Shown here one piece after another: positions 10,639 through 47,610 of a stretch of DNA of 64,000 nucleotides; position 1 is the stretch's first letter, and each line of letters begins with the position of its first letter. A program made the position numbers and the translations under genes. Origin of the DNA: Candidatus Xenobia bacterium (GTDB lineage: Bacteria > Vulcanimicrobiota > Xenobia > Xenobiales > QWHO01); assembly GCA_045863235.1 (NCBI GenBank), contig BTUM01000043.1:1-64000 (forward strand), written 5' to 3'. The notes below the pieces were generated by a model that was not told the origin of the DNA, ran no database searches, and was given only the letters and a program-made list of their open reading frames with translations.

Positions 10639-13600
10639 TTATGTTCTTGAACCATCTTCAAGCTCCTCCCGTTTGGCCACCCGCACGCCTCCCACCAGGA
10701 TGGCCTCCTCCCGTTCCTCGATGGCAGCTCGGCCCCTCAGCATGTCCTCGTTCCCCTGGACGAGCTCGAGCGTCTGCATCCCCTCGCGAACCAGGCGCTG
10801 CGCTTCGGTATGGTTGGGAGCAGCGGCGATGCGCTCGGCCTGGGCACCCAGGCTGATCTGCACCGTCGGGTTGGCCGAGAAGCGCCCGATGGCAAGGCGC
10901 AGAGCCTTCTCCCCGGCCGGTTGCAGCAAGCCCTCGCCCAGCTGCTCGAGAAACTCCCGGCAGGGCGGCAGGGCAAGCGTCAGGGGAGTCGCAGGGTCAA
11001 GAGCCTGCGCGAGGGTCCATTCGGTGACGCGCAGGCGCTCCTCGGCAGCTACTTCTCGGGTCTGCTGGTAAGCCTTCAGGACCGCCAATCCCAGCTCGAC
11101 CGGGCCCGTGCTCTGGAGGTTCTCCAGCGCGCTCCGCCCGATCAGGCGCCGGGCCTCATCGCTGGTTGCCCCTTCGATCAGCTCGCCGGCCCACTCGGCC
11201 GCGCGATGGTGCTCGAGCAGCTTGAGCATCACCGGCAGGCTCGCCTCTCCGCCCGAGTCGGCCAGCAGCGCTCCTACCCGGCCCACGGCCTGATCGCGCT
11301 CGCTGCTGACCGGCTGGCGCTCGAGCTGGCCCAGCTCCCAGCGCAGCAGGCGACGCTTCTCCTCGGGCGGGCAGTCGAGCTTGGCGAACAGCTCGCCCAG
11401 ACGATCGCTCCGGTCACCCGAGGGATTCTCAAGCCACACCTGATAGGCTCGGCTGCGCGCGCTCTCGGTTTCCAGCGCCTCCCCCCAGGCCAGCGCCAAG
11501 CGCGCCCAGGGGGCTCTTATCCTCTCCAGGGCTGGGCGGGCCGCGTCCGCCCCGCCGAGCTGACGCAGGTAGTCGGCCTGCTGGGCAAGCTGCTCCTGAT
11601 CCGTGGTCCGCTCCATTCGGTGGCGCACCAGCTCAATCCGCTCTTCATTGCTGACCTCAGAGCTCGAGCGCACGGCCACCAGAGTTTCATAGAGCACATT
11701 CTCTGCCTCTCCCAGCACCATCGGGACCAGGGTCTTGCGCAAGGTTTCGTTCCTCGTCGCGGCCAGCCACTCGTCCAGCTGCTCGGCTCTGGCCACCGTT
11801 TCGGGAGTGCGTCGCAAGGCGCGGCCGATCTCTTCCAGAGCTTCATCGCCCTTCAGATCATAGAGCCACTTGACCAGGGTCAGGGTCTGCTCGCTGGTGC
11901 CCACTTCACGAAGCGCGCGGCTGACCAGGGCCGCCCGGTCTTCATTGGGCAGCTTGCTGTCATATCGATTCGCCTGCCACAGGCCGCGCAGCAGCTCGAC
12001 CGGGTCGGAATCAAGATCTCCCTTCAGGGCTGCCTCGGTCAACACTTTGCGGCTGGAGGGGTGCGCGACGGCCTGGCGCCAGTCGATCAGGCGCTCGACC
12101 TCGGTCTTGCGGGTGGGCAAGCGGGCCAGCAGCTCCAGCACCTGGACCTCGCCCTGGTCCTCCTTCAGCTCGTAGATCCAGGAGGCGTGGACCGCCAGGG
12201 CCTGATCGCGAGCCTCTCCGGGGGCCAGGGTTACCAGCTGGCTCGCGCTCCAATCCACCAGACGGGCCCGCTCGGCGTTGTCCACCCCGCGCGGCACCGC
12301 TTTCCAGAAGCCCCGCATTCGCTCGACCCGCGCCTCGGGCGTGAGCTCGACCGGCCCCTCCAGCACGGCGGACACGGCCGCACGGCGAGCCTCCTCCAGG
12401 GTCAGGGCCCCCAGCCAGCCGGAGAGCTCTTCGCCCAGCGGTTGTGTGGCGGGATCCGAGGCCAGGTACTCGGCCACACCCTCCGAGACCCCCAGTTGGG
12501 CCTTCCAGCCCAGGAGAGCCAACACTGCGGCGGGGGCACCTTCCTCATTCCGGCGGGTGGCCAGTTGCTCCAGATTGCGCTCCACCAGGCGCCGTCCATC
12601 CTCGCGCGGCAGCTTGCCCACCATCCCCTTCAATAGCTCAAGGCGAGCCGAGGGGGTATCCGCCACCGCCGGTTGGCCCATCACCTGGCTCAGCATCAGC
12701 GAGCGAGATTCCGGCTCTTGCAGAGTGTCCAGCCAATCTCTCTCCAGCGCGCCCAGCATCCCCTTGACCCGGGGCAGGGCCGCCTCACCGGTCAGCTCCA
12801 CCAGCCAGGCACCCAGCGTGCGCAGGGACTCCTCGCTGTCCGGCTGCCCCTGGAGGCGGTCGAACTCGGCCTGGCACAGCCGGGCTCGCTCCTCATTGGG
12901 CACTGCAGAGCCGGCCTTCTTCCAGAAGATCCGCATCCTGTCGATGGTGCTCTCCCCCTCGCCATCGAGGGCGATCTCGGCTGCCAGAGCCCGCCCCCGG
13001 TCGCTGGTCAGGGCCCCCAGCCAGCTCTCCAGCTCAGGGCTGGCCAGGCAGTCTTGCACCTGGGTCAGGGCCCTGGCTCCTTCCAGCTCCAGCAGCCAGC
13101 TGGCCAGCTGGCGACGCGAGGGGGCGTCGCTGGCGGCAGCCAGGTTCGCTCGCACCAGGGCCGCCCGCTGGGCGTTGTCGACCTTGTTGGGAAGACGCTT
13201 CCAGAGCTGCCTCAAAACCTCCACCCGACGCTCTGCGGTGGCATCGGGCGGATTGGTCTCCAACAGCAGCCTGGCGATCTCGCCCTGCCCGGCGGAAACG
13301 ACCTGGCACCATTCCCGGGCCAGTTGGCCGGCCACGGGAGGCAGGACGGCCAGCAACTGGGAGTGATCGCCGTTGGGTTCGAGCTCTTGGAGCCACCCGG
13401 CCAGAGTACGGTTCTCCTCCAGGCTGTTGGCGTCGCTCAACTGGGCCCGCACGAGGCGGGCGCGCTGGTCGTTGGAGAGAGTGCGGTTGGCCTGCCAGAA
13501 ATCGCTCAACAGCTCGACCGGCTTGCCGTCCCGGGGATGCTCCAGGAAGAAGAGCTGCACCGCCCGCCGCCCTTCGTCGGTGGTGACGGCCGCGTTCCAC

Positions 13601-14715: not shown

Positions 14716-14730
14716 CCGATCATGCTAGCT

Positions 14731-15756
14731 TCAAGCCTGGAAAAAAGGCTGAACGGGGCTCCGAACGGGCAGCCAGCTGCCGCCCACCACCACCCGGTCG
14801 GCCTCGAGCTGCACACCCGCAGCGGGAGATGGGTACAGCTGACGCAGCTGGGGCCACAGGGCCCCGATCTGCTGCAAGGTTGCCACCGGCTCGCCCTGCT
14901 CCAGGACTTTGGGCAGGCCATACTGCTGGCCCAGAGTCTCAAGACATGTCCGGGCCACCTCCTCGAGCCGGCCCGGGTCTTGAATCAGGGCTACGGTGTC
15001 GGGAAACCGGGAGGCAAACGCGTTCTCGCTCCACAGGGTGTTGCCCGGATAACTCAAGACGGCGGCCGCTGCGACACTGCGCTGCTCGGCGTCGGAGTCG
15101 GCGAACTGGCTGGTCAAAAAGCACGCATAGAGCGACCGCGAAGCCTGGTGCTGACCCAGCGGGGTCCGATCATCCAGGCGCTCGGCCAGCTTGAGGCCGA
15201 AGGTCATCAGCTCGGCCTGCTCGGGGTCGTTGGCCCGTACCTGCTCGGCCAGATGGCGGCGCACGGCCAGCCCGCCATCGCTCAGGGCGCCGCAGAACAA
15301 GCCGAAGGCCAGGCGCGCCTGACCCACTGTCTCTCGTCGCAGTGCCCGGGCGGCCGACTCCACCAGGTGGTTGCGGTCGCGCTCGCTGGGCAGTTGAGGT
15401 AGAAAGTGGTCCACGACCTCGAGTATGGCGGGCGCGGCCGGGTGAGTGCTGGCGCGCAGGAAGGGGAGCACGTAGGGCGTGTGGTCCTGGCCGGACAACT
15501 GCTCGGGTTTGAGGCCAGCCAGCCAGTCGGAAGCCAGCCACACGGCCACCATGGTGGCCGGCCCGGTGGCCGCCTTCTCCAGCCCCTTACCCCAGGTGCG
15601 GGAAGCTCGCTCGGCCAGCTCCGAGCCGAGTGAGGCCCGCATGCTGTCCAGCGAGCTTCTCACCAGCACGTCCAGCGGCTCGCCCGTGGACAGGGCAGGG
15701 ACGGCCGAGGCCCGCATCGGGGCCTGAAAGACAGAAGGACGCCAGTTGACCAGCAT
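14731..15756 (-). CDS. Hypothetical helical protein with the C-terminal VGG motif
   Basis: 341 aa; ends VQLEADRVVVGGSWLPVR; TAAGCT 6 nt before the ATG. Confidence 0.8.
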   Translation of the reverse strand: MLVNWRPSVFQAPMRASAVPALSTGEPLDVLVRSSLDSMRASLGSELAERASRTWGKGLEKAATGPATMVAVWLASDWLAGLKPEQLSGQDHTPYVLPFLRASTHPAAPAILEVVDHFLPQLPSERDRNHLVESAARALRRETVGQARLAFGLFCGALSDGGLAVRRHLAEQVRANDPEQAELMTFGLKLAERLDDRTPLGQHQASRSLYACFLTSQFADSDAEQRSVAAAAVLSYPGNTLWSENAFASRFPDTVALIQDPGRLEEVARTCLETLGQQYGLPKVLEQGEPVATLQQIGALWPQLRQLYPSPAAGVQLEADRVVVGGSWLPVRSPVQPFFQA

Positions 15757-15820
15757 GATCGGAGCTTAGCCTGCCGGCCTGAAAGGGGACTGAAGCGGGC
15801 TCTCGCGAATTGGCGACCCC

Positions 15821-16153: not shown

Positions 16154-16270
16154 GGAAGCGCTAAGGGGTGAGACGGACCAACTCCCCAGATCGGTGCAGG
16201 TGGTAGTCTCGCCGCAAAGCTGATGCCAGTCATACCACCGCTACCCGTGGAGTGATACCCTTACCCTAGC

Positions 16271-16786: not shown

Positions 16787-16902
16787 AGAGTAAGGCTCGC
16801 AGAGGGGACCAGGGTTGAGCCGCCTGAGCGAAACTTCGTCGCATTGACCGTCAGGCGTTGTGGACAGAAACCACTTCCGGCCACGCTGTAAACCTCTTCG
16901 CG

Positions 16903-17865: not shown

Positions 17866-17891
17866 GGTCTCTGCTCCTTGCACAAGTTTTC

Positions 17892-18194: not shown

Positions 18195-18716
18195 TCACAC
18201 TGCAGCACGTCGCTTGGCCAGCTTCACACCATTGACCACGATCTTGTGCGAGTCTTGCTGGATGGTCGCGAACCCGTCCGGGTCGCTCACCGCCTCCTGG
18301 TACTTCGCCTGCGCCACCGCCAGACGCTCTTCCAGGGCTCTTTCCTGGGGGGCCAGCGCGGCGTACTTCTCCGCACCCTCTTGTCTGGCAGACCGGCTCA
18401 TCAGCCAGAATCCAATCCCCGGGGCCACCAGTCCGGCCACGAACGCCGGCAGGCCCAACCCCATGTTGCCGGCCAGATACATCCCCGCGATCGGCGGTAT
18501 ACACAAGATCCAGATGCCGTAGTCGGACATCTTCTTGCTGCCAGCCTGCTTGCTGAGCGCCTCCTGGCTGGATGTGGCGCGGAATCCATCCAGCGCCGCC
18601 CGGGCCTGGTTGACCTCGTGCTCGGCTTGCTGGACTCTTTCTTCGGCCCCGGTCAACTGGCGGGTGGCCGAGGTGAGCGAAGTCGCCCCCGTGGGCAGCG
18701 CAAATCGGACCTGCAT
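18195..18716 (-). CDS. Coiled-coil / 2-TM hypothetical protein with the C-terminal VNGV motif variant
   Basis: GGAGA RBS then MQVRFALP; hydrophobic hairpin; ends IQQDSHKIVVNGVKLAKRR. Confidence 0.8.
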   Translation of the reverse strand: MQVRFALPTGATSLTSATRQLTGAEERVQQAEHEVNQARAALDGFRATSSQEALSKQAGSKKMSDYGIWILCIPPIAGMYLAGNMGLGLPAFVAGLVAPGIGFWLMSRSARQEGAEKYAALAPQERALEERLAVAQAKYQEAVSDPDGFATIQQDSHKIVVNGVKLAKRRAAV

Positions 18717-18811: not shown

Positions 18812-19486
18812 TCAGGCCTGCTGAACGCGCCCATCCACCAGTTGCACGACCCTGTCGGCCATCCGGGTGAACCTCTCGTCGTGGCTCACCATCACGAAAC
18901 TCTTGCCGCTGGAGCGGCTGAGCTCGCGCATCAGGTCGTAGGCGGTCCGGGCGGTCTTGGAGTCGAGGTTCCCGGTGGGTTCGTCAGCCAGCACCAGCAC
19001 GGGATCGTTGGCCAGCGCGCGGACGATGGCCACCCTCTGCTGCTGCCCGCCCGAGAGCTGAGAGGGGCGATAGTGCAGTCGGTCGGCCAGTCCTACCTGC
19101 TCGAGCAGAGCCTCGACCCGAGCGCGAGCCGCCTGCTCGGCGCCCCGCCCCCTCAATCGACAGGGCATGAGCGCGTTCTCGAGCACGGTGAACTCGGGCA
19201 GGAGGTAGTGGAACTGGAAGATGAAGCCCAGGTAGTCGCGCCGGTACTCGGCCCGGGCGCGAGCGGTGAAGCCGGCCGTATCTCGATCTCCCAGACGCAG
19301 AACACCGCCGGTGGGGCTGTCGAGGAGCCCGAGCAGGTTGAGCAGGGTCGACTTCCCGCTTCCCGAGGCCCCCTGGATGGCCAGAAACTCGCCTGACGCG
19401 ACGGTCAGGTTGACCTCGAAGAGCACCTGCGTGGGAACTTCGCCCGCGTAGATCTTGTCCACCTTGATCAGCTCGGCCACCGCCAT
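18812..19486 (-). CDS. ABC transporter ATP-binding protein (LolD/MacB type)
   Basis: [33 protein letters not shown] 19486 overlaps the permease stop. Confidence 0.95.
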
Positions 19487-20736
19487 CAGCTCCCCCGGAT
19501 CACCTCGATGGGATCGACCCGGGCGGCCTGCCAGGCTGGAAAGAGCGAGGAGAGCAGGCCCACGATCAGGGCCAGTCCCACCGCTCCCAGAACCATCTCG
19601 GGGGTGAGCTCCACCGGGAAGAGCTCGATGCTGCGACCGCTGGCCGAGAGGGTGCGGGCCTTCTTGAGCTGGCTCACCAGGAACAACCCGGTGGCGCTGC
19701 CCAGCACTCCGCCCAGGAGCGAGAGAAGGCAGCCCTCCAGGGCGAACACTCCCAGGATCTGACGGTCTGTCGCTCCCATGGCTTTGAGGATGCCGATCTC
19801 CTTGGAACGGCTGACCACCGCCGTGATCATGATGCTCGCGATGCCGAAGGCCGCGGCCAGGGTGGTGATAGCCAGGATCATGTTGGAAGAGCCTGACTGT
19901 GCCTTCAGCGCAACCAGCAGGCTCTGATTGTCCCTGGTCCAGGGCTCGACCTGGTAGGGAACCTGGAGAGACAGCCGCCGGGCCAGCTCCTCTGCTTCGA
20001 AGACGTGGCGCAGCCGCATCCCCAGCGAGGTGACCGCAGTGCCCAATCCGAACAGCGACTGCCCGTCGCGCAGGGGCAGGTAGACCGTGCTCGAGTCGAG
20101 GGCGCGGAAGCCGGTGTCGAAGATACCCGCAACAGTATAGGTGCGGGCTACGTCCTCGGTGCTGGTGAGGCGCAGCTTGTCGCCCAGGTCGACTCCCAGC
20201 TCCTCGGCCAGGCGATAGCCCATGGTCAGCTCCCCTCCGTTGAGCCCGAAAAAGCGTCCCCGGGCCAGGTTGCCCTGCAGCGCGACCACCCGGTCCTGGC
20301 GCTCGGGGATGACCCCGTAGATCTGCACCGTGACCTTCTTGGTGCCTCGCGCCAGGGTCCCCTGGCCGCTCACCGTGGGAGAGACCGCGATGACCTCGGG
20401 GTCGAACCGCTCCAGTCGGGGAAGCCAGGCCTGCCAGTCCTCGATTTTTTGCTTCTGTTGGGGCAGCTTGACGGTGCGGGCGGTGTAGAGCACGCCCGCC
20501 TCGGGCGACTCTTCCCACAGCGCAATGGGTGGACGCTCGACCTGCTCGACGGAAATATGCGCCACCGCTCCCGTCACGGTGGCGATCAGCCGGCGCTGCA
20601 GACCGCCGATCAGGCCGGTCAGGAAGATGATCAGGGTCACGCTCATGGCCACCACGCCCGTGGTCAAGAGCGTCTCGCCACGCCCGTAGCGGAGGTGGCG
20701 CAGGGCCACTGTGACGGTGAAGTAGTCGGGGATCAC
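19486..20736 (-). CDS. ABC permease (FtsX/MacB/LolC-E family)
   Basis: N-terminal TM, periplasmic domain, RSKEIGILKAMGA, AARVDPIEVIR. Confidence 0.93.
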   Translation of the reverse strand: MIPDYFTVTVALRHLRYGRGETLLTTGVVAMSVTLIIFLTGLIGGLQRRLIATVTGAVAHISVEQVERPPIALWEESPEAGVLYTARTVKLPQQKQKIEDWQAWLPRLERFDPEVIAVSPTVSGQGTLARGTKKVTVQIYGVIPERQDRVVALQGNLARGRFFGLNGGELTMGYRLAEELGVDLGDKLRLTSTEDVARTYTVAGIFDTGFRALDSSTVYLPLRDGQSLFGLGTAVTSLGMRLRHVFEAEELARRLSLQVPYQVEPWTRDNQSLLVALKAQSGSSNMILAITTLAAAFGIASIMITAVVSRSKEIGILKAMGATDRQILGVFALEGCLLSLLGGVLGSATGLFLVSQLKKARTLSASGRSIELFPVELTPEMVLGAVGLALIVGLLSSLFPAWQAARVDPIEVIRGS

Positions 20737-22250
20737 TCGCCCACCGGCTCGTAGTTGGTCTTGCCGTTGAGGTCGTTGCCGACGGCGGGCGGCCCCGACT
20801 CGAGCTCGGGGGGCTCGACCGTCCGGGCTCGAGCGCGCTGCCCGGACTCGACGGCGGTGGCGTTCTGCACCACCGCCTGGTCCTCCCCGAGGCCTTCGAT
20901 GGCGGCCCAGTTCTGGCCGCGAGCCAGCACCTTGACCGTGAGCGCGCGCAGCCGTCCCCCTTCGACCACCAGGCAGGTGTTGTCGTTGATCAGGCAGGAG
21001 AGGGGAAGGCTGAGGGCTTTCAGGCGCTGGACCTCGATGCTGACATCCAGAGTCATCTCGGGACGGGCGTAGTCGGGCAGCCGATCGGGCTTGAGCCGCA
21101 CCGGCACGACCCCGCGCGTGGCATCCACGTCGGGCCCGATCTGGCTGACCCGAGCCGTGAACGGCTGCTCGCGGAAGGCTGGCGGGAAGACGGTGGCGCT
21201 CTGCCCTACCTTGAGGCGGGGAAGGTTGGTCTCATCCGTCTCGACATAGATCTCGGTGCGCTCCATGGCTGCCAGCGTGAGCAGGGTGGTGCCCGTATTG
21301 ACGCTCTGGCCCGGCTCGACGTAACGACGGGTGATCAGCCCCGCCATGGGGGCCCGGATCTGACGTCGCTCCACCTGCTCCACGGCGTTCCGGAAGGCCG
21401 ACTCGGCTTCGGCCAGACGGGCTCGGGCCAGACTGCGGTCCTCCGGATAGGGCTGCCGGGCCAGCAGGCTGAGGTTCTGGCTGGCCACCTGCTCGCTGGT
21501 GGAGAGAGTGGCCCGGGCGGCCTCCAACTCGGCTCGGGCGGCGGCGATCTCCTCGGAGCGTGCTGGCCGGCTGGCCAGCCGCAGGCGTTCCTGCAGGGCC
21601 CGCTCGCTGGCCAGGGCACGGTTCTGGGCCAGGGTAGCCTGCTCGAGCTCCGAGCGCGAGATGGCTCCCTGGGCAAAGAGGTCGCGGGCCCGAGCCAGGT
21701 CGCGGTCGGCCTGCTCGCGCTCCGAGCGCCCTCGAGCCAGGTTGGCTCGGGCTTCACCTCGCTCCTCGGGCCGGCCGCCGCGCTCGAGCTGGTCGAGCCT
21801 CTGGCGTGCCTGCTCCAGGCGCGCCCGGTTGACCTGACTGGCCTGCTCGAGCTCGGCCCGGGCTCGAGCGATCTCCTCCGGTTGGGCGCCGCGCTCGACC
21901 CGGGCCAGCTCGCTGGAGGCCGTTTCCACGGCGTGGCGGGCCTGGTCGCGCTGCGCCAGGATGTCGCGGTCGTCAAGCTGGAGCAGCAGCTGACCCTTGC
22001 GCACCTGATCGCCTTCCTCCACCAGCACTCTGGCCACGCTACCCGAGACACTGCAGCCGATCTGGCTCTGTCGCACCGCTCGGAGCCGACCGCTGGCCAG
22101 AATCAACTCGACCACTTCTCGTTCGCGAGGCAAGACCACATCGACGGCGGGGGCGGGTCGCAGCTGCCACCCCACCAGCGCGAGGACCAGCACGCCAAGA
22201 ACGAGCAGCACGGCGACTCTGGGGCTCGACATTCGGCCGGGATGTTCCAC
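20733..22250 (-). CDS. Efflux periplasmic adaptor (MacA/HlyD family) with a long coiled coil
   Basis: SGSVARVLVEEGDQVRKGQLL, IRAPMAGLI...VEPGQSV; the start may be 22232. Confidence 0.92.
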   Translation of the reverse strand: MEHPGRMSSPRVAVLLVLGVLVLALVGWQLRPAPAVDVVLPREREVVELILASGRLRAVRQSQIGCSVSGSVARVLVEEGDQVRKGQLLLQLDDRDILAQRDQARHAVETASSELARVERGAQPEEIARARAELEQASQVNRARLEQARQRLDQLERGGRPEERGEARANLARGRSEREQADRDLARARDLFAQGAISRSELEQATLAQNRALASERALQERLRLASRPARSEEIAAARAELEAARATLSTSEQVASQNLSLLARQPYPEDRSLARARLAEAESAFRNAVEQVERRQIRAPMAGLITRRYVEPGQSVNTGTTLLTLAAMERTEIYVETDETNLPRLKVGQSATVFPPAFREQPFTARVSQIGPDVDATRGVVPVRLKPDRLPDYARPEMTLDVSIEVQRLKALSLPLSCLINDNTCLVVEGGRLRALTVKVLARGQNWAAIEGLGEDQAVVQNATAVESGQRARARTVEPPELESGPPAVGNDLNGKTNYEPVGE

Positions 22251-29706: not shown

Positions 29707-30606
29707 TCAATGAGACTGACGGGCTTGATAGTCTCGATAGTCGTTCTGCGCCGCCTGCCGGAAGACGGCCCGATCCACCTTGCGATTGGCCTGGAACTCC
29801 TCAGGCGTGATCCGACCCAGAGCCAGCGCTTTCACGCCCGGATCGCGCCATGACTTGGGCTCGCGCCCGGTGAGCTGAAAGACCTGCTTCTCCAGTTTGC
29901 GCCAGAAGTTGGCTTTGGAAAGGGTCTGGTTCCACATGCCATTGACGATGCAGTAGTAGTCGTCCCAGGGCATGGCGTGGTGTTTGGCGTGATCGGATCG
30001 AGTCTGGAGAACTCTGGCCCTCTGCAAGCTCTGGGCCAGCCGGGGAGCCTGCGGATGGTGGGTCCAGCGGTGGGAGACCTGGCCCAGAGTGGTGCCGAGC
30101 AGCATCGAGGTCACCCCGGCGGTCACCGCGTGATGAGGACTGAAAAGTCCCAGGGCCAGGATGGGCAGGGCGGTGAAGTGGCCTACCTGGGCCAGGTTGC
30201 TCAGGGTGGAGCGCTCCAGGATGCTGTGGCGCTCGTGATGGTGGATCTGGAATTTCTCGGCCAGTTCGCCCAGCACAGGCGTGTTGCGAGTCGGATAGTT
30301 GTCCACCGCCCAGTGGAAGATGCCGCTGCCGAAGTCGGCCGCGGCCCAGCCGGCCAGGGCGCTGCCGGCCACCAGGGCGGCCGCGGCCACTTTAGCTGTC
30401 ACCCCCGGCAGAGAAGCCACCTGGGAGGCTATGTTGGAGACGTTCCAGGCCACCCCGCCCATCACCGCGCCGGCTACCAGCTTGTGAGCCAACGGGGTGC
30501 CAGGCTCTCCGCCGAGCAGAGCCCGGTCGGCCGGCTCCTCGGCAGCGGGCAGGGCCCTGCGGGGGGCTGTGAAGTTGGGTCGATGGGTGGCAAAGGATAC
30601 GTTCAT
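29707..30606 (-). CDS. carF: CarF/TMEM189-family (plasmanylethanolamine) desaturase
   Basis: ADFGSGIFHWAVDNY, FQIHHH, SHRWTH, HAKHH.PWDDYYCIVNGMWN. Confidence 0.88.
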   Translation of the reverse strand: MNVSFATHRPNFTAPRRALPAAEEPADRALLGGEPGTPLAHKLVAGAVMGGVAWNVSNIASQVASLPGVTAKVAAAALVAGSALAGWAAADFGSGIFHWAVDNYPTRNTPVLGELAEKFQIHHHERHSILERSTLSNLAQVGHFTALPILALGLFSPHHAVTAGVTSMLLGTTLGQVSHRWTHHPQAPRLAQSLQRARVLQTRSDHAKHHAMPWDDYYCIVNGMWNQTLSKANFWRKLEKQVFQLTGREPKSWRDPGVKALALGRITPEEFQANRKVDRAVFRQAAQNDYRDYQARQSH

Positions 30607-36087: not shown

Positions 36088-36092
36088 TCGAC

Positions 36093-37172: not shown

Positions 37173-39509
37173 ATGCTGGACCGAGTCAGCCTCAAAGGGC
37201 CGACCATCACCGACCGGGTCGCCTTCCTGGGCAAGCTCCAGGCCGATGGGACGCGCCCCCTCGACGAGGTCGTCTTTTCCCAGGATGGCACCAGGGCCTT
37301 CCTCAAGGACGCCGAGGGACTGGTTTCGGTGGCGCCGGACGGAACCCGCCAGGTCCTCTGCCCATGGCAGAAAGATCGGTCTCCCATGGGGGCCCCGTTC
37401 GAGCTTCCCGGAGGGGGGGTGGCGTTCTTCCGAGGTGGTTCCTCCACGGTCCGGGACCTGACCGCAGTAGGTGCGGACGGCTCTCCCCTCTGGTCGGTGC
37501 CGGTAGAGCGGGACGCACCCGATCGGGCCCGCTTTTTGCAAGACCGGGTCTTGCTTTGTGGCGACCAGTGCGTGAAGGCGGTCAGCCTCCAGAACGGCAA
37601 ACTGCTCTGGGCCCACGACATCCCGCGGTTTTCCACCCTCAGCAGCACTCCCGATGGCCATCTGCTCGTGGGCGACGACCAGCAGGTCTATTCGCTGACC
37701 CCCGAAGGGGAGCGCCAGGACCTGCCCCTGCAACTTCCCCCCGACCAGCGTTGCATCGCGCTCACGGCAACCGGGGACGGCGCTCTATTGATCCAGCACT
37801 CCCAGGAGCTGCGCTGCTACAATCCGGATGGCTCGGTGCGCTGGAGTCGGCCGGGCTACGGCGAGAGGGTGCCGGTGGGCGAAGGGCCCGGGGTCTACTA
37901 CCAGGTTCAGGATCACACCCTCCAGGGCCTGGATCCGGCTACCGGCGAGTCGAAGTGGACGGTGGACGGATACTCCTTGCGCCGCAGCTACCACCTCGAC
38001 CCGGAGGGGCGTGTGCGCTTCGTTCCCCTGCAGCCGTTCGGCGAGCTGTGGACGGTCGACCCCCGGGGAGGGGTCCTGGTGCAGAAACTTCCCAAGGAGG
38101 CGGGCGCGCCCGACCAGATCGCGATCCAGCCAGACGGATCCACCCTGTTGATCAGCTTCGGCAAGGTGGTGCCACTGGCCCCGCCCGAGGCTGGCGCCTC
38201 CAAGGGCGAGTTCGAGCTCTTGCAGGAAGCCACCGAGCGGGTTACCGGCCTGTCCCGAGAGCAATTGAGCCACCTCGAGCCCGAGGAGTGGCGCCCCCTG
38301 ATGGAGAGAGCCCGCGCGCTCCTTCTCCAGCGCCGGAACGCCGAAGACCGGGCCCTGGCCAGCCGGGCAAGCTGCAGCGAGGCCACCCGGCCCTTCGATC
38401 AGGAGCACCAGCAACTCAAGGAGCTCTATAGCCAGTGCGAGCTCACCCGGCCGGCCCGGGAGGGACTGCTGGCCGTGTGGGGCCAGCACCATGCGGTGGA
38501 AGGCTGGGAACGCCGCCTGTTCGGCGAAAAGGTCACGCCTGAGCAGCGGAGCTGGCTCTATCAAAGCGCCTCCGATCTGATCCATGGCCCCCGCGTGGAG
38601 CGGTTGAGCGAGCTGCCCGAGGCCACCCTGCGCCTGGCCTGCGAGGAGATGCTGGGGCCACCAGGGCGCGAGACGGACAACCCCGCCCTGCTGCTCGACG
38701 CCTGCCATCGAGCCAGCGAGCAGTCGCCCTGGCAAAGGAGGCGGGCCCTGGAAGTTCTGGCGAAATTGGACCGCAGCGCCGACGCATCTTTGTTTGCCGA
38801 CCTGATCTCCACCAAAGACTTCGTGGAGCGGGTGGACAAACTGCTGACTCAACCTTTCCCCACCTGCCAGGTGCCGGTGGCCCTCAAGATCCTGGCGGGA
38901 CAGGATCCGGGTCCAGTCCAGGCGGGGAGCGAGCAAGAGTCGCTGGCCCTGGCCCGACTCGCCGGGCTGGAGCCGAAGGCTCTGGAGCAGCTGTGGCCGG
39001 CTCTGCAGGTCAGTCAGAAGGGCCAGACCGCGCGCGAGTTGCAGGACCTGTGTCCCACCAACCCGGCCGTGGCCACCACCGTGCTCGGTCAATCCGACGA
39101 GCAGAACGCCGTTCAGCTGACCGAGAGTCTCTTGCGCTCAGGCCGCCTGAGGAGCGACGAGAGCGCCCGGGTGGGCGCTTACCTCGTCGCTCGACGCCTT
39201 GAGAGCGGGGCCGAGCTGGTAGGAGTGGGGCGGGAGTTGCTCGACGAGACCGGTGAGCCGGCCTGGCTGGGCGGAGCCCTGACCGGTTTCCTGGAAGCCG
39301 CCAGCGCCCGGGGGGTAATCGGCCTGAACGCGCTGCTCCAGTCCCAATCTCCCCGCCCGGTGGCCGAGCTGCGCCCACTGGTGAGCGAGGCCGTCGCTCG
39401 CGCCGAGACCAGCAAGCTCCACGCCCCCGAGCAAAGTGGCGGCGTGGCCCGGCTGGGCTCCAACCTGGTGGTCGGCAACGTGGCCCTGAGAACCCGCTCC
39501 CGCAGCTGA
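37173..39509 (+). CDS. PQQ-like beta-propeller + helical domain protein with the C-terminal VGNV motif variant
   Basis: DGSPLW, NGKLLW, DGSVRW and TGESKW blades; ends VARLGSNLVVGNVALRTR. Confidence 0.8.
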   Translation: MLDRVSLKGPTITDRVAFLGKLQADGTRPLDEVVFSQDGTRAFLKDAEGLVSVAPDGTRQVLCPWQKDRSPMGAPFELPGGGVAFFRGGSSTVRDLTAVGADGSPLWSVPVERDAPDRARFLQDRVLLCGDQCVKAVSLQNGKLLWAHDIPRFSTLSSTPDGHLLVGDDQQVYSLTPEGERQDLPLQLPPDQRCIALTATGDGALLIQHSQELRCYNPDGSVRWSRPGYGERVPVGEGPGVYYQVQDHTLQGLDPATGESKWTVDGYSLRRSYHLDPEGRVRFVPLQPFGELWTVDPRGGVLVQKLPKEAGAPDQIAIQPDGSTLLISFGKVVPLAPPEAGASKGEFELLQEATERVTGLSREQLSHLEPEEWRPLMERARALLLQRRNAEDRALASRASCSEATRPFDQEHQQLKELYSQCELTRPAREGLLAVWGQHHAVEGWERRLFGEKVTPEQRSWLYQSASDLIHGPRVERLSELPEATLRLACEEMLGPPGRETDNPALLLDACHRASEQSPWQRRRALEVLAKLDRSADASLFADLISTKDFVERVDKLLTQPFPTCQVPVALKILAGQDPGPVQAGSEQESLALARLAGLEPKALEQLWPALQVSQKGQTARELQDLCPTNPAVATTVLGQSDEQNAVQLTESLLRSGRLRSDESARVGAYLVARRLESGAELVGVGRELLDETGEPAWLGGALTGFLEAASARGVIGLNALLQSQSPRPVAELRPLVSEAVARAETSKLHAPEQSGGVARLGSNLVVGNVALRTRSRS

Positions 39510-39523
39510 CCACCCGGCGGGTT

Positions 39524-39553: not shown

Positions 39554-39558
39554 CCTAG

Positions 39559-41244
39559 CTAGGGGGCCGTCTCGCAGTCCACCTTGCGCACCCGCAAGCG
39601 TACCCCGCCCACCAGCACCGCGCCCTGAGTCTCGGCGATGGTGGTGGCCTGGTCCTGACCGGTCACGGCCTTCGCCATCTTCTTGATCTCGGTCACATCA
39701 TCGTCGATCGCCTGAATGCCGCGAAACGCCTCTTTGAGCGCTTCGGCCTTCTGGTGGTCGTACTGTTTGCTCAGGGCCTCGTCGAGCAGAGCGCGCGCTC
39801 GGGGATTGCTGTAACGGCCGCTCAGCACACGCCCCGCGGCCACGATGTCCTGGGCGGCATGGGCGGTGCTGAGAGAGCCCAGCAGCTCGGCGGCCAGTTG
39901 CGAGAAGGGAGGCGGCTCGGGCGCAAGCAGGTGGCTGAAGACGACCCTGGCCATCTCCACCCGCTGGTTGTCGTAGCGAACCGCTCGCATGGCCTGCAGC
40001 ACGATGTCGGCGTCTGCGTTGTCGGTGCGCTCGAGCACCGCCATGGCTACCCGGTTGAGGTCCTGGGCGGCATAGGTGGAGCTGATGGTGCTCATGGCCT
40101 GCCGGGCCACGCTCAGCTCGGAAGTCTGTCCCTGCGAGATGGCCTCCAGCACTTCGTCGGCCAGAGCGAGCTTCTGGTTGTCATAGCGCACCTCGCCCTG
40201 CATCAAGAGGGCCAGATCGGCCATGGATTCTGTCTCGGGGAACTGCTTGAGCCTTTCCAGCAGCACGATCGAGGCAGCTGCTCGGTCCTGAGCCGCATAG
40301 GTGGGGCTGAGCTGAGCCAGCATGGCCTGACCCTGACGGGCCAGCCCCACCGGGTCTTTCGTCTGGCACGAGCTCATGGCCGTCTCGTAGATGGCCAGGC
40401 GCTGGTTGTCGTAGCGCACGGCCCGGCCCATCTCGAGCCCCAGCGAGAGCATCGGAGCGACGCTCGGGTCACCCACCAGGTGCTCGAGCAAGGTGCGCCC
40501 GAGGGCGGCGCGATCCTGCGCGGCGTAGGTGCTGCTGAGCTGGCTGGCCGCTTGCAGCCCCGGCGCAACCAGCTCCGGAGCGGAGGTCTTGTCGAACTGC
40601 TCCAGGAAGGTCTGGTAGATCGGGATCCTCTGGTTGTCGTAGCGCACGGACTGCCCGAGTTTCAGGGCCAGGCGAGCGGCCGGTGTGTCCAGCCGGCGCA
40701 GAGCCTTTTCTCCCACCTGACAAACGTCCGCAGCCGCGTAGTCGCTGTTCAGGGCCCGGGTAGCGGCCAGGCCCAGACCGGCCAGCCCGGCCGCCTCGGT
40801 GGCGGTGCTGGCCAGCACCAGCTGGGCGATGGCAACCCTTTGATTGGCGTAGCGGGGCGCCTCGAGCAGTTCGCTCCCGAAGCTCCACGGCCCGGGTACT
40901 TGATGGGCCTGCAGATGCTGCAGCGACCGCTGAGCCAGACTGAGCTTCTCCTCGTCGTTGCGCCCGGTGTTGACCAGCTCCAGGGCCACCCCGGCCAGCC
41001 CCAGCTGCGACCCGGCGACCTGCAGGGAGGCTCCCCGCCGCATCAGGGCCTCCTTGCCGGCGAACTTGAGCGCACCGGCCAGGTCGTCGCAAAGCGCCTC
41101 AACCGTGGGGTCAGAGAAAACCAGGGGGCCAGGCGGCTGGACCGGCTCGGGCACGTAAGCATCCTGGACCGGAGTCTCTTCCGGCCTGGGCTTCTTGCCC
41201 GTGATCCAGTCCCAAACACCTCCCATGCGTATGGGGGCAAGCAT
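39559..41244 (-). CDS. Alpha-helical repeat protein (RYDNQ / STYAAQD repeats) with the C-terminal VGGV motif
   Basis: About 6 repeats of ~65-72 aa; ends IAETQGAVLVGGVRLRVRK. Confidence 0.85.
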   Translation of the reverse strand: MLAPIRMGGVWDWITGKKPRPEETPVQDAYVPEPVQPPGPLVFSDPTVEALCDDLAGALKFAGKEALMRRGASLQVAGSQLGLAGVALELVNTGRNDEEKLSLAQRSLQHLQAHQVPGPWSFGSELLEAPRYANQRVAIAQLVLASTATEAAGLAGLGLAATRALNSDYAAADVCQVGEKALRRLDTPAARLALKLGQSVRYDNQRIPIYQTFLEQFDKTSAPELVAPGLQAASQLSSTYAAQDRAALGRTLLEHLVGDPSVAPMLSLGLEMGRAVRYDNQRLAIYETAMSSCQTKDPVGLARQGQAMLAQLSPTYAAQDRAAASIVLLERLKQFPETESMADLALLMQGEVRYDNQKLALADEVLEAISQGQTSELSVARQAMSTISSTYAAQDLNRVAMAVLERTDNADADIVLQAMRAVRYDNQRVEMARVVFSHLLAPEPPPFSQLAAELLGSLSTAHAAQDIVAAGRVLSGRYSNPRARALLDEALSKQYDHQKAEALKEAFRGIQAIDDDVTEIKKMAKAVTGQDQATTIAETQGAVLVGGVRLRVRKVDCETAP

Positions 41245-41402
41245 GACGCCGTCAGTATGACAAGGGCTTCTGAACGGAGTCTGAAAGCCTGCCTGCAAAG
41301 CGGCAGGTCACCACCGCGACCCGTGTCGAATCATGACGTTCAGCCCATCCCGGTAGGACGCAGGACAGGCCCCCGGCGTCAACTCGAGCAGGGAGAGTCA
41401 GC

Positions 41403-42290
41403 ATGAGCACGTTGCAAGGCACCTCGAACCCCAACTACAGCTTTACGGGAGTTCAAACCGTAGCCAGTTATGCCACCGGCGGGCCCAACCCGGCCACGCC
41501 GGTCGTGCAGGTCTCCTACACTCAGGAACAGCTCGCCATCATCGCTGTCTCCGTCCAGCGCGAGCGAGAGCTTTACAACCAGTGGGGCTTCGTGGCTGGG
41601 CAACCGGTCAACGGCCACACGGTCACCAATCCCAACCCGCCCGCCGTCACCCAGCCGGTCCAGGGCCCCACCAATTCGAGCTTCCCGTTCATCGGGCCCT
41701 ACACCGGCCCGGGAGGGCTTCCCCAGCAGTCGCCCAACGTGCTCGGCCCCTTCGGCGGGCCTGGCGGTCTGCCTCAGGGTCCCTACGTGCTCGGGCCCTG
41801 GGATGGTCCGGGCGGTCTTCCTCAGGGTCCGCACGTGCTCGGTCCCTGGAATGGTCCGGGCGGTCTTCCCCAGGGTCCCCACGTGCTCGGCCCCTGGGAT
41901 GGACCGGGCGGCCTGCCTCAGGGGCCTTACGTGCTCGGGCCGTGGGGTGGCCCGGGAGGCCTGCCTCAGGGTCCTTACGTGCTCGGGCCGTGGGGTGGTC
42001 CGGGTGGCCTGCCTCAGGGGCCCTACGTGCTCGGCCCCTGGGATGGCCCGGGCGGTCTGCCTCAGGGTCCGAATGTGCTCGGACCCTTCGGCGGCCAAGG
42101 TGGTCTGCCCCAGGGCCCCTTCGTGCTCGGCCCCTGGAATGGTCCGGGTGGCCTGCCCACCGGCCCGAACGTGCTCGGGCCTTTCGGAGGACCGGGCGGG
42201 CTGCCGGGCCAGTCCCCGCCACTGCTTGGCCCGGCCAGCTTCGGGGCACCCAACGGCACCTTCCCCTTCTTCGGGCAGTTTCCGTCCTGA
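41403..42290 (+). CDS. Gly/Pro-rich 16-aa tandem repeat protein
   Basis: GGAG RBS; GPGGLPQGP[YHNF]VLGP[WF][DNG] x10; variation between units is mostly synonymous in this frame. Confidence 0.85.
   Translation: MSTLQGTSNPNYSFTGVQTVASYATGGPNPATPVVQVSYTQEQLAIIAVSVQRERELYNQWGFVAGQPVNGHTVTNPNPPAVTQPVQGPTNSSFPFIGPYTGPGGLPQQSPNVLGPFGGPGGLPQGPYVLGPWDGPGGLPQGPHVLGPWNGPGGLPQGPHVLGPWDGPGGLPQGPYVLGPWGGPGGLPQGPYVLGPWGGPGGLPQGPYVLGPWDGPGGLPQGPNVLGPFGGQGGLPQGPFVLGPWNGPGGLPTGPNVLGPFGGPGGLPGQSPPLLGPASFGAPNGTFPFFGQFPS
41706..42235 (+). repeat. 48-bp coding tandem repeat, 10 copies plus 1 degenerate
   Basis: cgtgctcgg recurs with period 48. Confidence 0.95.
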
Positions 42291-42294
42291 GCTC

Positions 42295-44679: not shown

Positions 44680-44698
44680 GCAACAGTGCACTGAGAAT

Positions 44699-45157
44699 CT
44701 AACGATTCACCTCGCGCACCTCGCCGTTGCGCCGGTCCACCACGACCAGGTGGTAGCGGCCCACGTCGTTGGGGGCAGAGTAGTATTTCGACTCCTCTGG
44801 CGTCACCCGCTCGACCTGCAGGTGCACGCTCTCCCCGTCGCTCTGCAGGCGCAACTCCACGATCTTGACCTGGGCGTAGAGGAAGTTGCTGTAGGCCACC
44901 ACGGCCATGTTCTCGGTGAAGTCGATCTCGGGGCGCTTCAGGAGCGGGTCGTCGCTGGGTGGAGCCGGGTTGGTCTTGGAGATCTCCGTCCTGGGAATGC
45001 GGTCGATGAAGTCGTCGTAAGCCTTTTGATCGCGCAGCACCAGCACCCCGCCCGGACCGTGAACCCTCAGCACTCCGCTGTACTCAGCCGTGGGGAACAA
45101 GAGCGCCTCCCCGGCACCCAGGGCGAGGAGAGCCAGCAGCAAGAGCCACTTTCTCAT
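44699..45157 (-). CDS. Secreted PrcB-C-terminal-like protein
   Basis: MRKWLLLLALLALG signal; PEIDFTENMAVVA...YHLVVVDR. Confidence 0.7.
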   Translation of the reverse strand: MRKWLLLLALLALGAGEALLFPTAEYSGVLRVHGPGGVLVLRDQKAYDDFIDRIPRTEISKTNPAPPSDDPLLKRPEIDFTENMAVVAYSNFLYAQVKIVELRLQSDGESVHLQVERVTPEESKYYSAPNDVGRYHLVVVDRRNGEVREVNR

Positions 45158-45654
45158 CGCGTGGGGGCCAGCAGATAAAGATGGGGAGCCAGATCGGTCA
45201 TGTCCAGGTTGATCATCTCGGCCTGGACGGCCTGTCCGTTCACCTGGCCGCTCAGCTGGCCGCGGGAAAGATCCAGCTCCAGGTCCACCGACTTCGAGCC
45301 CACCGTGCCGTGCAGGCTGTCGTGGTCGAAGCGCAGGTTCCACTGGTCCTCGCCGGTGGAGCCAGAAATGGTGTGAGCCTGCCAGTTCACCTCCAGCTCG
45401 AGGTCCTGGCCGTTGGCCTGGCCTTCCAACTGAATCCGGCTGGGGCTCCAGCCCATGGACAGCTCCACCTCGTGGCCGTTGGCCACGCCCTCGATGGCCC
45501 CGCGGTCGTGGTCGATGCTGAGCGACACCGAATCCTGATTGGCCGTGCCGGCCACGGTGTGCAGGCGACGATCGAAACTGAGGTCCAGCGACGCCCCGTT
45601 GGCCTGCCCTCGGATCCATCCGAGGCGCGGCGGGGCAAGAGTGCTCACAGCCAT
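45154..45654 (-). CDS. Beta-hairpin repeat hypothetical protein
   Basis: About 7 repeats of ~19 aa, I.G.aNG..v.L; GGAGG RBS. Confidence 0.78.
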   Translation of the reverse strand: MAVSTLAPPRLGWIRGQANGASLDLSFDRRLHTVAGTANQDSVSLSIDHDRGAIEGVANGHEVELSMGWSPSRIQLEGQANGQDLELEVNWQAHTISGSTGEDQWNLRFDHDSLHGTVGSKSVDLELDLSRGQLSGQVNGQAVQAEMINLDMTDLAPHLYLLAPTR

Positions 45655-45797
45655 GACAAAGTCCCTCCAAAATCAGACGACGCTCACTTTCGGGAGCGGT
45701 CGAGCATTTCTTTGTGTGTGGCGCCAGTATAGCCAGGCCCTGCCAGTCAGCCGTGAACGGGGTGTTACACTCTCCCGCGGGGGGGCTCACACGGGGA

Positions 45798-46520
45798 ATG
45801 TCGAATCCCAGGACTGTGGATCCGATCATCCGAGCCGGCGCCCCCGGACTCCATGTCGTGGCCCAGGTCCGGCCAGCCGAGCCTGGACTATCAGGCGATG
45901 GGTTCGAGGTGGCTCCGCGCGAGGACGGCAGCACCGCCATCTGGTTGCTTGACGCCGAGGGCCATGGGGCCAAAGGCTGCGCTGAGCGCCAACAGATCCT
46001 CAGCGTGCTCGGGAAGGATGCCAGCTGGACCTCGCTCGAGCCTGAGAAAGCCCTGGCCCGGGCCGACGAGTTGCTGGCCGCCGAGGGTAAAGAGGTCTCC
46101 ATGACCTTCGTCCAGGTGGACCCGGTCAGCCAGACCCTCACCGTTGCGGTTGCCGGAGGGATTCCGTTCCCGATGCTCCTGCGGGGCGACTCGGGAGCGC
46201 TCGAAACCATCGAGTCGGGGGGCCTCTTTCTCGGCTACGGCTATGCCGACATCCAGCACGACGTGATCAAGACCGAGTTCCACCCCGGCGACCGGTTGGT
46301 GCTCTTCAGCGACGGCGTCACCGAGGCTCGCGATCAGACCGATACGCTGTTCACCCTCGAGGGCGTCTCACAGACCCTGAAGGGTTCGGCTGAAGCGCCC
46401 CCGGAGCAGCTGGTGGACCGCCTGATGCAGGCCAGCCTCACCCACGCCGGCCGCGAGTTGCCCGAGGACGACACCACCGTCGTCCTGGTAGAGTTCTTTC
46501 AGCCCCCTCGACTAGACTGA
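45798..46520 (+). CDS. PP2C / SpoIIE-type phosphatase
   Basis: DAEGHG, PGDRLVLFSDGVTEA, EDDTTVV. Confidence 0.88.
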   Translation: MSNPRTVDPIIRAGAPGLHVVAQVRPAEPGLSGDGFEVAPREDGSTAIWLLDAEGHGAKGCAERQQILSVLGKDASWTSLEPEKALARADELLAAEGKEVSMTFVQVDPVSQTLTVAVAGGIPFPMLLRGDSGALETIESGGLFLGYGYADIQHDVIKTEFHPGDRLVLFSDGVTEARDQTDTLFTLEGVSQTLKGSAEAPPEQLVDRLMQASLTHAGRELPEDDTTVVLVEFFQPPRLD

Positions 46521-46524
46521 GCCC

Positions 46525-47610
46525 ATGGAGCTGGGCGCCGCAACCCGGGCACTGAGCAGCATCAAGGATGCCGATCCGCATCGGCTCTGGTCATGCCAGC
46601 CGGAAGAGCTGATCGAGGAAGACCAGCGACCGTTTGCGGTCAAAGGCACCTTTTACGCCTCCCCGGTCGAGGACACGGTGCTGATCGGCTATCAGGGCCG
46701 CCTGGCCCGGCTCGACAGCCTGGACGGCAAGCAGAAGGAAGTGCTCAACACCGAGAAGGCCGGCTTCTGGTTCTCGGACTGCTGGCAGACCCTGACACCG
46801 GACGGCAAGACGCTGCTGCAGGCCGATGATCAGGCCATCACCGCCCTGAACGTGGCCACTGGCAAGAAGCGCTGGACCTTCCCCAACCGGGACAAGAACA
46901 CCAGCTTCGGCCGGACCGGGCCCAGCGTGGGCCCGGACGGCACGGTGTACTTCGGCACCACCAACGGAGCCGTCTACGCCGTCAACGGCGAGACCGGCAA
47001 GAAGCTCTGGAAGGCCGAAACCGGGGCCTACGCGCGGGCCGCTCCGGCGGTGGGGCCAGACGGCAAGCTGTACGTTGGGCTGCTGGGAGGCGACAAGTTG
47101 CCCCTGGTGGTGCTGAACGCCGCGGATGGGCACGAGGAGCGGCGCCTCCCCTTAAAGGGCAGCCTGCGCACCGAGCCCTGGGTGGGCGGCGACGGGGTGG
47201 TCTTCGTCAAGCTCGATGGCGGCGTAACGGCGCTTGATCCGCAGAGTGGCGGGCAGCGCTGGAAGGTCAAGCCGGCCTCACGCGACGACGTGCTGGGCCC
47301 GGCGCCAGGCCCGGACGGGCAGTACTACTTCAGCACTCGCCAGGGCAAGCTGCTGGCCGTGAACGCTGCGGACGGACAGGAGACCTGGCGCCTGGACGCC
47401 GAGCAGCGCCTCAGCTCGGGCCCGCAGGTGGACCGCCACGGAGTGCTCTACGTCATGAACGACGAGGGCGAGGTGGAAGCCTTCGCCCGCAACAAGGGTG
47501 CTCGCCTGGCCGCCCAGGCCAGCTCCGCGCTGGCGGCCGGACCCGCGGTGGGAGCCGTCCACGGCTACTTCGTGGTGGGCGGCGTGCGACTGGCCATGGC
47601 CTCTCGCTGA
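46525..47610 (+). CDS. PQQ-like beta-propeller protein with the C-terminal VGGV motif
   Basis: GPDGTVYFG...AVN..TGK..W blades; ends VGAVHGYFVVGGVRLAMASR; no signal peptide. Confidence 0.88.
   Translation: MELGAATRALSSIKDADPHRLWSCQPEELIEEDQRPFAVKGTFYASPVEDTVLIGYQGRLARLDSLDGKQKEVLNTEKAGFWFSDCWQTLTPDGKTLLQADDQAITALNVATGKKRWTFPNRDKNTSFGRTGPSVGPDGTVYFGTTNGAVYAVNGETGKKLWKAETGAYARAAPAVGPDGKLYVGLLGGDKLPLVVLNAADGHEERRLPLKGSLRTEPWVGGDGVVFVKLDGGVTALDPQSGGQRWKVKPASRDDVLGPAPGPDGQYYFSTRQGKLLAVNAADGQETWRLDAEQRLSSGPQVDRHGVLYVMNDEGEVEAFARNKGARLAAQASSALAAGPAVGAVHGYFVVGGVRLAMASR

Follow-up and report, generated by a model that had tools for sequence, protein, structure and literature searches.

In a stretch of 64,000 nucleotides from a Candidatus Xenobia bacterium (contig BTUM01000043.1, positions 1 to 64,000; hereafter the window), six proteins carry the same 18-residue motif at or near their C-terminus, and we found that this motif, here called the tag, recurs across the genome far beyond chance. 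Neither the tag family nor the variant of type III secretion to which it is attached seems to have been described before. Judging from their sequences, the tagged proteins are probably cargo of a flagellum-derived type III system, and the tag itself may be an accessory handle by which a single chaperone or adaptor of the producing cell docks onto them, a reading that we hold with some reserve. It is probably not the primary export signal in the manner of the C-terminal domain (CTD) of type IX secretion system (T9SS) cargo or the tails of type IV secretion system (T4SS) substrates. In the literature, we found no description of the tag, of the promoter box that precedes many tagged genes or of this secretion system, and the accessible part of PMC11484240 does not mention secretion.

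The C-terminal tag family

The six 18-mers were verified in frame in the six genes listed below, where they align without gaps and stand 2–9 residues from the stop codon, as an earlier note on this DNA had described. The literal pattern written in that note fared less well: it matches only two of the six window proteins and, genome-wide, 10 open reading frames (ORFs), all ≤9 residues from the stop. The true family consensus is looser and reads G/A-[VI]-x-E-x4-[VL]-x-[VIL]-G-[GS]-V-x-[VL]-[RK]-[RK]-R. The tags and tagged genes of the window are as follows (lengths in amino acids, aa):

10669..10722, minus strand: tag 1, in gene 14715-10639; 35.8 bits; followed by 9 residues
14761..14814, minus strand: tag 2, in gene 15756-14731; 27.7 bits; followed by 9 residues
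18210..18263, minus strand: tag 3, in gene 18716-18195; 25.4 bits; followed by 4 residues
39444..39497, plus strand: tag 4, in gene 37173-39509; 18.8 bits; followed by 3 residues
39586..39639, minus strand: tag 5, in gene 41244-39559; 35.1 bits; followed by 8 residues; heads the alignment that was folded as three strands
47548..47601, plus strand: tag 6, in gene 46525-47610; 18.2 bits; followed by 2 residues
10639..14715, minus strand: tagged helical repeat protein, 1358 aa, no Pfam match, member of a 19-protein tagged family
14731..15756, minus strand: tagged protein, 341 aa, type III-like N-terminus, no Pfam match
18195..18716, minus strand: tagged coiled-coil protein, 173 aa, among the 43 tagged proteins that have an Inc-like, bilobed hydrophobic segment
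37173..39509, plus strand: tagged protein, 778 aa, PQQ-type propeller plus a helical part
39559..41244, minus strand: tagged helical repeat protein, 561 aa
46525..47610, plus strand: tagged PQQ-type beta-propeller, 361 aa, with the tag predicted as a separate element after a helix

The earlier description of these bodies as different was borne out: Pfam recognizes two PQQ-type propellers and one protein is a coiled coil with a transmembrane hairpin, and the helical repeat proteins have no Pfam match. Also as described, the linker ahead of the motif is rich in Gly, Ala, Pro and Ser, in keeping with flexibility, and Sec or Tat signals are missing, with no Tat motif and one crude Sec-like N-terminus among the 193 tagged proteins that we collected from the genome. 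The window holds six tags in 64 kb, compared with a genome mean of 1.5.

The genome that contains the window (8.36 Mb, 66% GC, 97.6% complete, 166 contigs, the window being contig C43) was searched with a position-specific scoring matrix (PSSM) that was seeded with the six window motifs alone, iterated without regard to position and applied to 73,495 six-frame ORFs at a cut-off of ≥15 bits. This gave 191 matches, 180 of which lie ≤30 residues from the stop, a zone holding 21% of positions; among ORFs of ≥150 aa, reversed sequences yielded 2 matches and shuffled sequences none. A hidden Markov model (HMM; ≥10 bits) found 174 matches in 6,402 called genes, 168 of them C-terminal, and none in the reversed proteome. 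Both the large genome-wide family that had been anticipated (about 190 members by the position-blind profile) and its enrichment at C-termini were thus observed. The curated set of 193 proteins used below comprises the 180 terminal PSSM matches, 7 weaker terminal ones and 6 proteins with an internal copy, and accounts for ~3.6% of the genome bases.

Once trimmed of their tags, the bodies of these 193 proteins fell into 101 families, 77 of them singletons, with propellers as the largest tagged family (24/193). A Pfam scan of 85 tagged proteins left 72 without a family, the remainder being mostly PQQ/WD-type propellers, together with one HD domain and one MAM/CUB protein. The number of residues after the motif is variable (0–30), and the C-terminal net charge is ≥+2 in 86% of the 180 tag tails compared with 21% of background C-termini. 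An Inc-like bilobed hydrophobic stretch, as in hairpin-membrane proteins, was present in 43 of the 193, and RTX nonapeptide, VPEP and LPxTG motifs were found in none of them. Seven tag copies are internal: six precede a further domain, and the seventh is the leading member of a pair of tags. Double tags occur in the public protein P0003, where they stand in tandem, and in C10:924. In four proteins (C3:76119, C3:123379, C32:68044 and C135:61), the internal tag is followed by a ~22-residue beta-type repeat domain that is present in no other ORF of the genome.

The tag had no match among described domains: Pfam returned no family for 95 tags, NCBIfam gave only four stray single-member matches for 96 tags (E≥0.019), Foldseek against the PDB found nothing below E 3.7 with the predicted tag, and the ESM Atlas held no feature match. 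AlphaFold2 run on a 96-row tag alignment placed three strands with a core predicted local distance difference test (pLDDT) score of 74–81. In the full-length model of the window propeller 46525-47610 (mean pLDDT 88, tag ~70), the strands cover residues 342-345, 348-351 and 354-357, following a linker helix and apart from the propeller. The tag is hence predicted to be a three-stranded beta-meander, which agrees with the small three-stranded beta element of the earlier note, and its conserved hydrophobic positions 2, 9, 11, 14 and 16 alternate in a manner that would place them on one face. Tag identity is as high between families (34%) as within them (36%) and synonymous codons agree at the expected background level (46% vs 44%), so that the similarity is kept by selection on the protein; the same comparisons led us to reject recent DNA duplication as its source.

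Several likenesses noticed by eye were also dropped. Those to a PQQ blade, to the FliN SpoA hairpin and to a stalk-like domain ranked 31, 16 and 76 among 137 control families, which is not above background. A 52% match of the tag to a secreted stalk-like protein of genus g2 was circular, since these proteins had been found using the tag model. The g2 proteins at loci L188, L191 and L195 are secreted, have a stalk-like N-terminal domain with an internal tag-like hairpin and have no Pfam match. A further resemblance of the tag, seen by eye only, is to the strands of CsrA.

Promoter box and N-termini of the tagged genes

Many tagged genes are preceded by a direct repeat, TTTCAG-N5-TTTCAG, which ends 22–23 nt before the start codon and is accompanied by a TAnnnT-like hexamer at -12 to -7, a geometry that would imply leaderless transcripts. 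This box was found at 116 of the 193 tagged genes and at 116 of 6,215 other genes, an enrichment that is inflated because the box model was seeded from tagged genes; the other 77 tagged genes lack it. Two checks are independent of the seeding. The exact repeat matched 112 times at a 6-nt spacer, compared with 8–21 times at other spacers, and in the relatives G013 and G007 box matches exceeded the control (74 vs 12 and 58 vs 11, respectively). Contigs of four RNA runs covered genes and intergenic DNA alike, at low depth. In the window, four of the six tagged genes have a box upstream, and two untagged genes belong to the same regulon:

14738..14754, minus strand: direct-repeat promoter box of the TTCAG type; the GTG at 14715 follows after 22 nt
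15779..15795, minus strand: direct-repeat promoter box, 22 nt before the ATG at 15756
41270..41286, minus strand: direct-repeat promoter box, 25 nt before the ATG at 41244
46486..46502, plus strand: promoter box with a strong proximal half-site, 22 nt before the ATG at 46525
3061..4548, plus strand: untagged regulon gene 3100-4548, coding for a type III-like N-terminus, with its box at 3061-3077
1718..2666, minus strand: box 2650-2666 and untagged regulon gene starting at 2626

The proteins encoded by tagged genes also share a type of N-terminus, M-x-I/V followed by a region rich in Ser, Pro and Thr and often containing D-x-V-x-L or D-x-F, with Ile or Val at position 3 in 64% compared with 14%. 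An N-terminal model trained solely on untagged box genes separated 105 tagged from 4,917 background genes with an area under the curve of 0.93; this test is compositional only, and the background gene starts came from a simple gene caller. Most untagged box genes have the same N-terminal type as the tagged ones, and tagged box genes are the longer of the two groups (median 449 vs 334 aa). The window propeller has 46 public homologues in the set compared; all 10 tagged ones, six of which are close orthologues, lack a hydrophobic N-terminus, whereas 26 of the 36 untagged ones have one.

Some untagged regulon proteins resemble, by eye, bacterial housekeeping enzymes with an added N-terminal signal (presumably YidD-like, DHH-like, glycerophosphodiesterase-, thioredoxin reductase- and M48-like proteins), which would suggest bacterial rather than eukaryotic targets. 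In the window, the boxed untagged protein 3100-4548 ends in His-rich repeats and a possibly degenerate tag-like tail.

A flagellum-derived export system and the spread of the tag

A candidate export machine is encoded on contig C27 (60,720-79,381), in the order flgB-flgC-fliE-fliF-fliG-fliH-fliI-fliJ...fliM-fliN-fliO-fliP-fliQ-fliR-flhB-flhA. The set of export apparatus genes is complete, comprising FlhA, FlhB, FliP, two FliQ, FliR, FliO, FliH, FliI, FliJ, FliF, FliG, FliM and two FliN. Flagellin (PF00669) is absent from the genome, and FliC, FliD, FliS, FlgK, FlgL, FlgM, FliW, FlgD, FlgH, FlgI, MotA and MotB of genomes G004 and G013 had no tblastn match in it, so that the marks of a motility flagellum (flagellin, hook cap and junction, stator, L and P rings) are lacking. 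The cluster does not have the marks of an injectisome either, namely a secretin in the cluster, no flgB/flgC/fliE and a gate of the SctV clade: it contains no secretin (two secretins lie on other contigs), and in a quick IQ-TREE run (48 sequences, midpoint root) its FlhA fell among the flagellar FlhAs in a clade of its own with 10 members (support 100), whose sister is an Armatimonadota sequence (87) and which is distinct from the SctV clade (100) as well as from the motility FlhA of G004 and G013. Measured against the criteria given in parts of Abby and Rocha (PMC3459982), the cluster is neither a motility flagellum nor an injectisome.

An FHIPEP match was present in 41 of 41 genomes (this one and 40 relatives of the class) and flagellin in eight, most of which have a second full-length FlhA among the matches listed; a separate true flagellum thus coexists with this export system in some relatives. 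The relatives have 2–19 FHIPEP matches per genome. Five proteins of the present genome consist of the FlhA cytoplasmic domain only (C80:28012, C3:26973, C1:377631, C106:14839 and C107:13658) and are possibly soluble sorting platforms or signalling domains. The locus L292 (C74:1-4181) encodes a sigma-70-family factor (sigma-28-like by eye), a FlgJ rod-binding protein, FlgG/FlgF-like rods, a lone FlhB C-domain and a FliK-like protein. A family of acidic helical-bundle proteins (48 matches, relatives' loci included) occurs at C27:41931-54279 and in ~40 other places, and its members conserved beside the export cluster are candidate chaperones.

Adjoining the export cluster, three tandem genes encode an identical 81-aa pilin- or needle-like protein (C27:55986-57072, L044). 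Its nearest named ESM feature matches were clusters containing HrpA pilins (scores 0.90–0.91), a resemblance that is a lead only, as the family is found on 23–24% of the matched cluster members. Further paralogues are found elsewhere in the genome, some of them as C-terminal domains of longer proteins.

No other export route emerged that might carry the tagged proteins. VirB4 (PF03135), the type VI sheath protein TssC and a phage-type sheath were not found in this genome; the T4SS coupling protein (PF02534) was found in none of the 14 tag-rich genomes, Dot/Icm-specific genes not having been searched for; and no HlyD of type I secretion systems (T1SS; TIGR01843) exceeded the cut-off in 19 genomes, which contain many generic efflux adaptors. 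The tag tails have the basic character of a T4SS signal without the machinery (VirB4, coupling protein) having been found.

All four other genomes of the genus are tagged, with at least 98–148 matches each. A combined tag model run over 401 Eremiobacterota genomes, in which the best 20 candidates per genome were scored, gave ≥5 matches in 14 genomes of 6 families, three outside the class. Thirteen weak or single genome matches were dropped as chance, 10 lying >20 residues from the stop and 3 in short or implausible frames. In five distant genomes, all 24 tag matches read end 0–3 residues from the stop, and many of these 24 proteins have, by eye, the same N-terminal style; many tagged proteins of tag-poor genomes are propellers. 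HMMER over 1.84 billion representative proteins gave 14 matches, 13 of them ≤10 residues from the C-terminus, and the tag profile, run through a word-indexed search of proteins, brought up only 7, which is weak evidence on spread. The source names of public homologues point to the phylum Eremiobacterota/Vulcanimicrobiota. Genera with the same export machine and promoter box but no detectable tag also exist.

The tail is basic in most tag-rich genomes and acidic in one genus. The propeller homologues of G013, which belongs to another family, bear a variant tag with Gly-Asp at the turn and an acidic tail, a 1397-aa G013 protein similar to the 1358-aa window protein bears the acidic form too, and a model of this variant found 26 and 20 matches in the two genomes of G013's genus. 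The mean tail charge is -1.75 in genus g5 (16 tags) compared with +3.08 in g1 (72 tags), and the flip in g5 runs across unrelated proteins.

The earlier note had proposed phylogenetic profiling for a co-occurring machine. Of the 401 genomes, 50 have the pilin-like family, and every one of the 14 tag-rich genomes is among them. In two large families in which tag matches are only weak and single, the gene was found in 0 of 304 and 0 of 29 genomes; the machine itself is present in tag-negative genomes as well. This co-occurrence describes nesting and is not a statistical test, because related genomes are not independent.

Role of the tag and other features of the window

The earlier note had taken the motif for a sorting or export signal. 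The link to secretion is supported, but the tag as the export signal itself is not favoured, given the type III-like N-termini, the box shared with 116 untagged genes, the tagless genera with the same machine and the internal copies. The tag is optional, as half of the box genes and entire genera do without it, and its role is therefore probably that of an accessory module for docking. A docking handle for a chaperone or adaptor is favoured by the single predicted hydrophobic face, the conservation over ~100 bodies, the concerted charge flip and flagellar precedent: according to part of PMC10936197, flagellar chaperones bind subunit C-termini and early subunits bear a C-terminal targeting signal.

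We propose that an activator would bind the 11-bp-spaced TTTCAG repeats and give leaderless transcripts of some 230 or more cargo genes, whose disordered N-termini (the M-x-I/V type described above) would act as the type III export signal. The tag would present its hydrophobic face and charged tail to a common partner, which might hold bulky cargo such as propellers, long helical repeats and hairpin-membrane proteins, or pilot it to the export gate as flagellar chaperones do, and the cargo would then pass through a filament of HrpA-like small subunits into a target cell. In its widest form, which we regard as tentative and on balance doubtful, this proposal would mean that Xenobia and related Eremiobacterota have a second, independently evolved injectisome that derives from a flagellar basal body, with its own HrpA-like pilus and hundreds of effectors (possibly delivered into bacterial prey), and that several lineages sort about half of the cargo by a transferable tag read by one co-evolving adaptor, a two-signal logic that is not known from any type III system.

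Comparison with known systems brings out likenesses and differences. Flagellar type III substrates (FlgN/FlgK-L, FliS/FliC, FliT/FliD and the C-terminal signal of FlgE) likewise combine an N-terminal signal with a second, C-terminal element at a flagellar-type gate, but these elements are part of the subunits themselves and serve one or two each, whereas here one appended, predicted beta-meander extends over ~100 families. Flagellar chaperone-binding elements are helical D0 regions; FliS, FliW and FlgM homologues were not found in the genome, nor FliW in any of five genomes. Injectisome effectors are similar in forming a large co-regulated cargo set with disordered N-terminal signals and Inc-like membrane proteins, and the pilin candidates are HrpA-like. 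Unlike in injectisomes, however, the gate is flagellar (FlgB, FlgC, FliE, FliG, FliM and FliO are kept), FlhA lies outside the SctV clade and the cluster is without a secretin; the beta-motifs bound by class I chaperones are single strands near the N-terminus, not a C-terminal meander. The T9SS CTD, the XVIPCD of the Xanthomonas X-T4SS and the VirB/Dot-Icm tails also place a common C-terminal module on many unrelated cargo proteins. They are obligatory signals and either longer (70–120 aa) or purely charge-based, whereas this tag has 18 aa, is optional and shows no sequence match to them; moreover, the CTD route needs a Sec signal that is absent here, and no T4SS genes (VirB4, coupling protein) were found. 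Filament-less flagellar basal bodies, as in Buchnera, and the Myxococcal type III system are alike in being a flagellum-derived export apparatus without motility. The Myxococcal system, as described in part of PMC3459982, is without FlgB/C, FliE and FliG and groups with SctV, whereas the present system keeps FlgB/C, FliE and FliG, possesses a pilin-like family of its own and goes with a regulon in which cargo candidates number in the hundreds.

Several observations weigh against the view that the tag is a handle for this machine. The export cluster is syntenic in tag-negative genomes, among the genes listed, and the box, in the model used, is absent from the cluster genes and from the pilin candidates, so that the tie between regulon and machine is drawn from N-terminal composition, the absence of other routes and co-occurrence among related genomes. 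The inflated box enrichment and the limited HrpA resemblance mentioned above belong here too. As many as 116 box genes carry no tag, and among the readable box genes at 20 loci each, inspected by eye, the tagged fraction was 0/9 in G007 and 3/13 in G013; the tag is dispensable for the export system as a whole. Nor did a partner of the tag emerge from neighbourhood, profile or charge-swap searches. No neighbour family recurs beside tagged genes (584 neighbours in this genome, 22 loci in five distant genomes). YbjN/class I-fold chaperone-like genes are present in the genome, but the YbjN-type profile does not follow the tag, being present in the tag-negative genera g2 and g4 and not found in the tag-positive g8, g9 and g33. 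The core export proteins of G013 show no acid-to-base change matching the g5 dialect. The gene content of the cluster, compared between tag-positive and tag-negative genomes among the genes listed, offered no partner candidate either, and a Pfam search for CesT was without a match, although its control was silent too.

The lack of a producer-side partner near the genes or in the cluster, together with the optional nature of the tag, also speaks for a reading with the same cargo and machine in which the tag acts after delivery and gathers effectors at one site by binding either a scaffold or translocon component that is delivered along with them, or else a protein or membrane of the target cell. 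In the 43 hairpin-membrane proteins the tail would, by their presumed topology, face the target cytoplasm, and the excess of basic tails over background would suit such a role. The concerted acidic switch in one genus fits a co-evolving partner in the producer better than a generic membrane, although a partner that is encoded by the producer and co-delivered would explain this switch as well. We consider action after delivery unlikely.

Alternatively, the tag might be a degradation or unfolding handle, with which an AAA+ adaptor unfolds stable cargo before export or destroys cargo that was not exported. Its site at the C-terminus after a flexible linker, the greater length of tagged box genes and the many propellers among the tagged proteins of tag-poor genomes would fit. 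Degrons of the ssrA type are free terminal ones, unlike a tag with seven internal copies and a variable number of trailing residues, and no adaptor was found, which makes this role improbable. Self-association, in which face-to-face packing would join cargo into bundles or a surface or membrane lattice, is likewise improbable: an isolated three-stranded sheet with one predicted hydrophobic face needs a partner and double tags do occur, but the g5 form, being all-acidic, is without the acid/base complementarity seen in g1 and yet stays conserved.

Quite improbable, in our view, is a tag that serves as the primary export or packaging signal of another, unrecognized machine, with the type III-like N-termini being incidental. 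Strict C-terminal placement across classes and the 77 tagged genes without a box would be accounted for; against this stand the failed searches for the T4SS, T1SS and sheath components named above, the missing RTX, LPxTG and PEP-CTERM motifs and the presence of the pilin-like family in every tag-rich genome. Least credible of all is a structural cap that folds onto its own protein without a partner in trans, for instance a relic propeller blade: although the tag resembles three strands of a PQQ blade by eye and no tagged family is larger than the propellers, it is attached to 101 unrelated bodies, is a separate element of lower confidence after a helix in the full-length model and scores at background with the PQQ-blade profile.

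As a docking handle or otherwise, the tag provides a sequence handle on ~3% of the genome's genes, most of them unannotated, and marks them as one functional class that extends over several classes of a phylum with hardly any cultured members. It also points to a flagellum-derived secretion system that is conserved and seems to have an origin apart from that of known injectisomes, and such a separate origin bears on whether the transition from flagellum to injectisome happened once or repeatedly. If the docking reading is true, type III substrates of ~100 unrelated kinds would be handled in a new way, through one short and portable C-terminal module. It would further help to explain how Xenobia, proposed to be predators, act on other cells; a related marine family is described, in part of PMC9259500, as having diverse secretion systems and as maybe predatory.

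Other genes of the window deserve mention. Directly upstream of the tagged gene 18716-18195 lie genes for an ABC transporter ATPase and a HlyD-like adaptor (18812-22250, minus strand), the latter scoring under the T1SS cut-off. A protein with a lipid desaturase domain (29707-30606, minus strand; PF10520, E 3e-45) has a type III-like N-terminus by eye and neither tag nor box. The second half of the ORF at 7982-10069 (plus strand) contains a low-complexity N-terminal region and DxDGD-type calcium-binding-like repeats with weak EF-hand hits. Finally, a 295-aa ORF at 41403-42290 (plus strand) is built of near-perfect 14-residue repeats rich in Gly and Pro and has no Pfam match.

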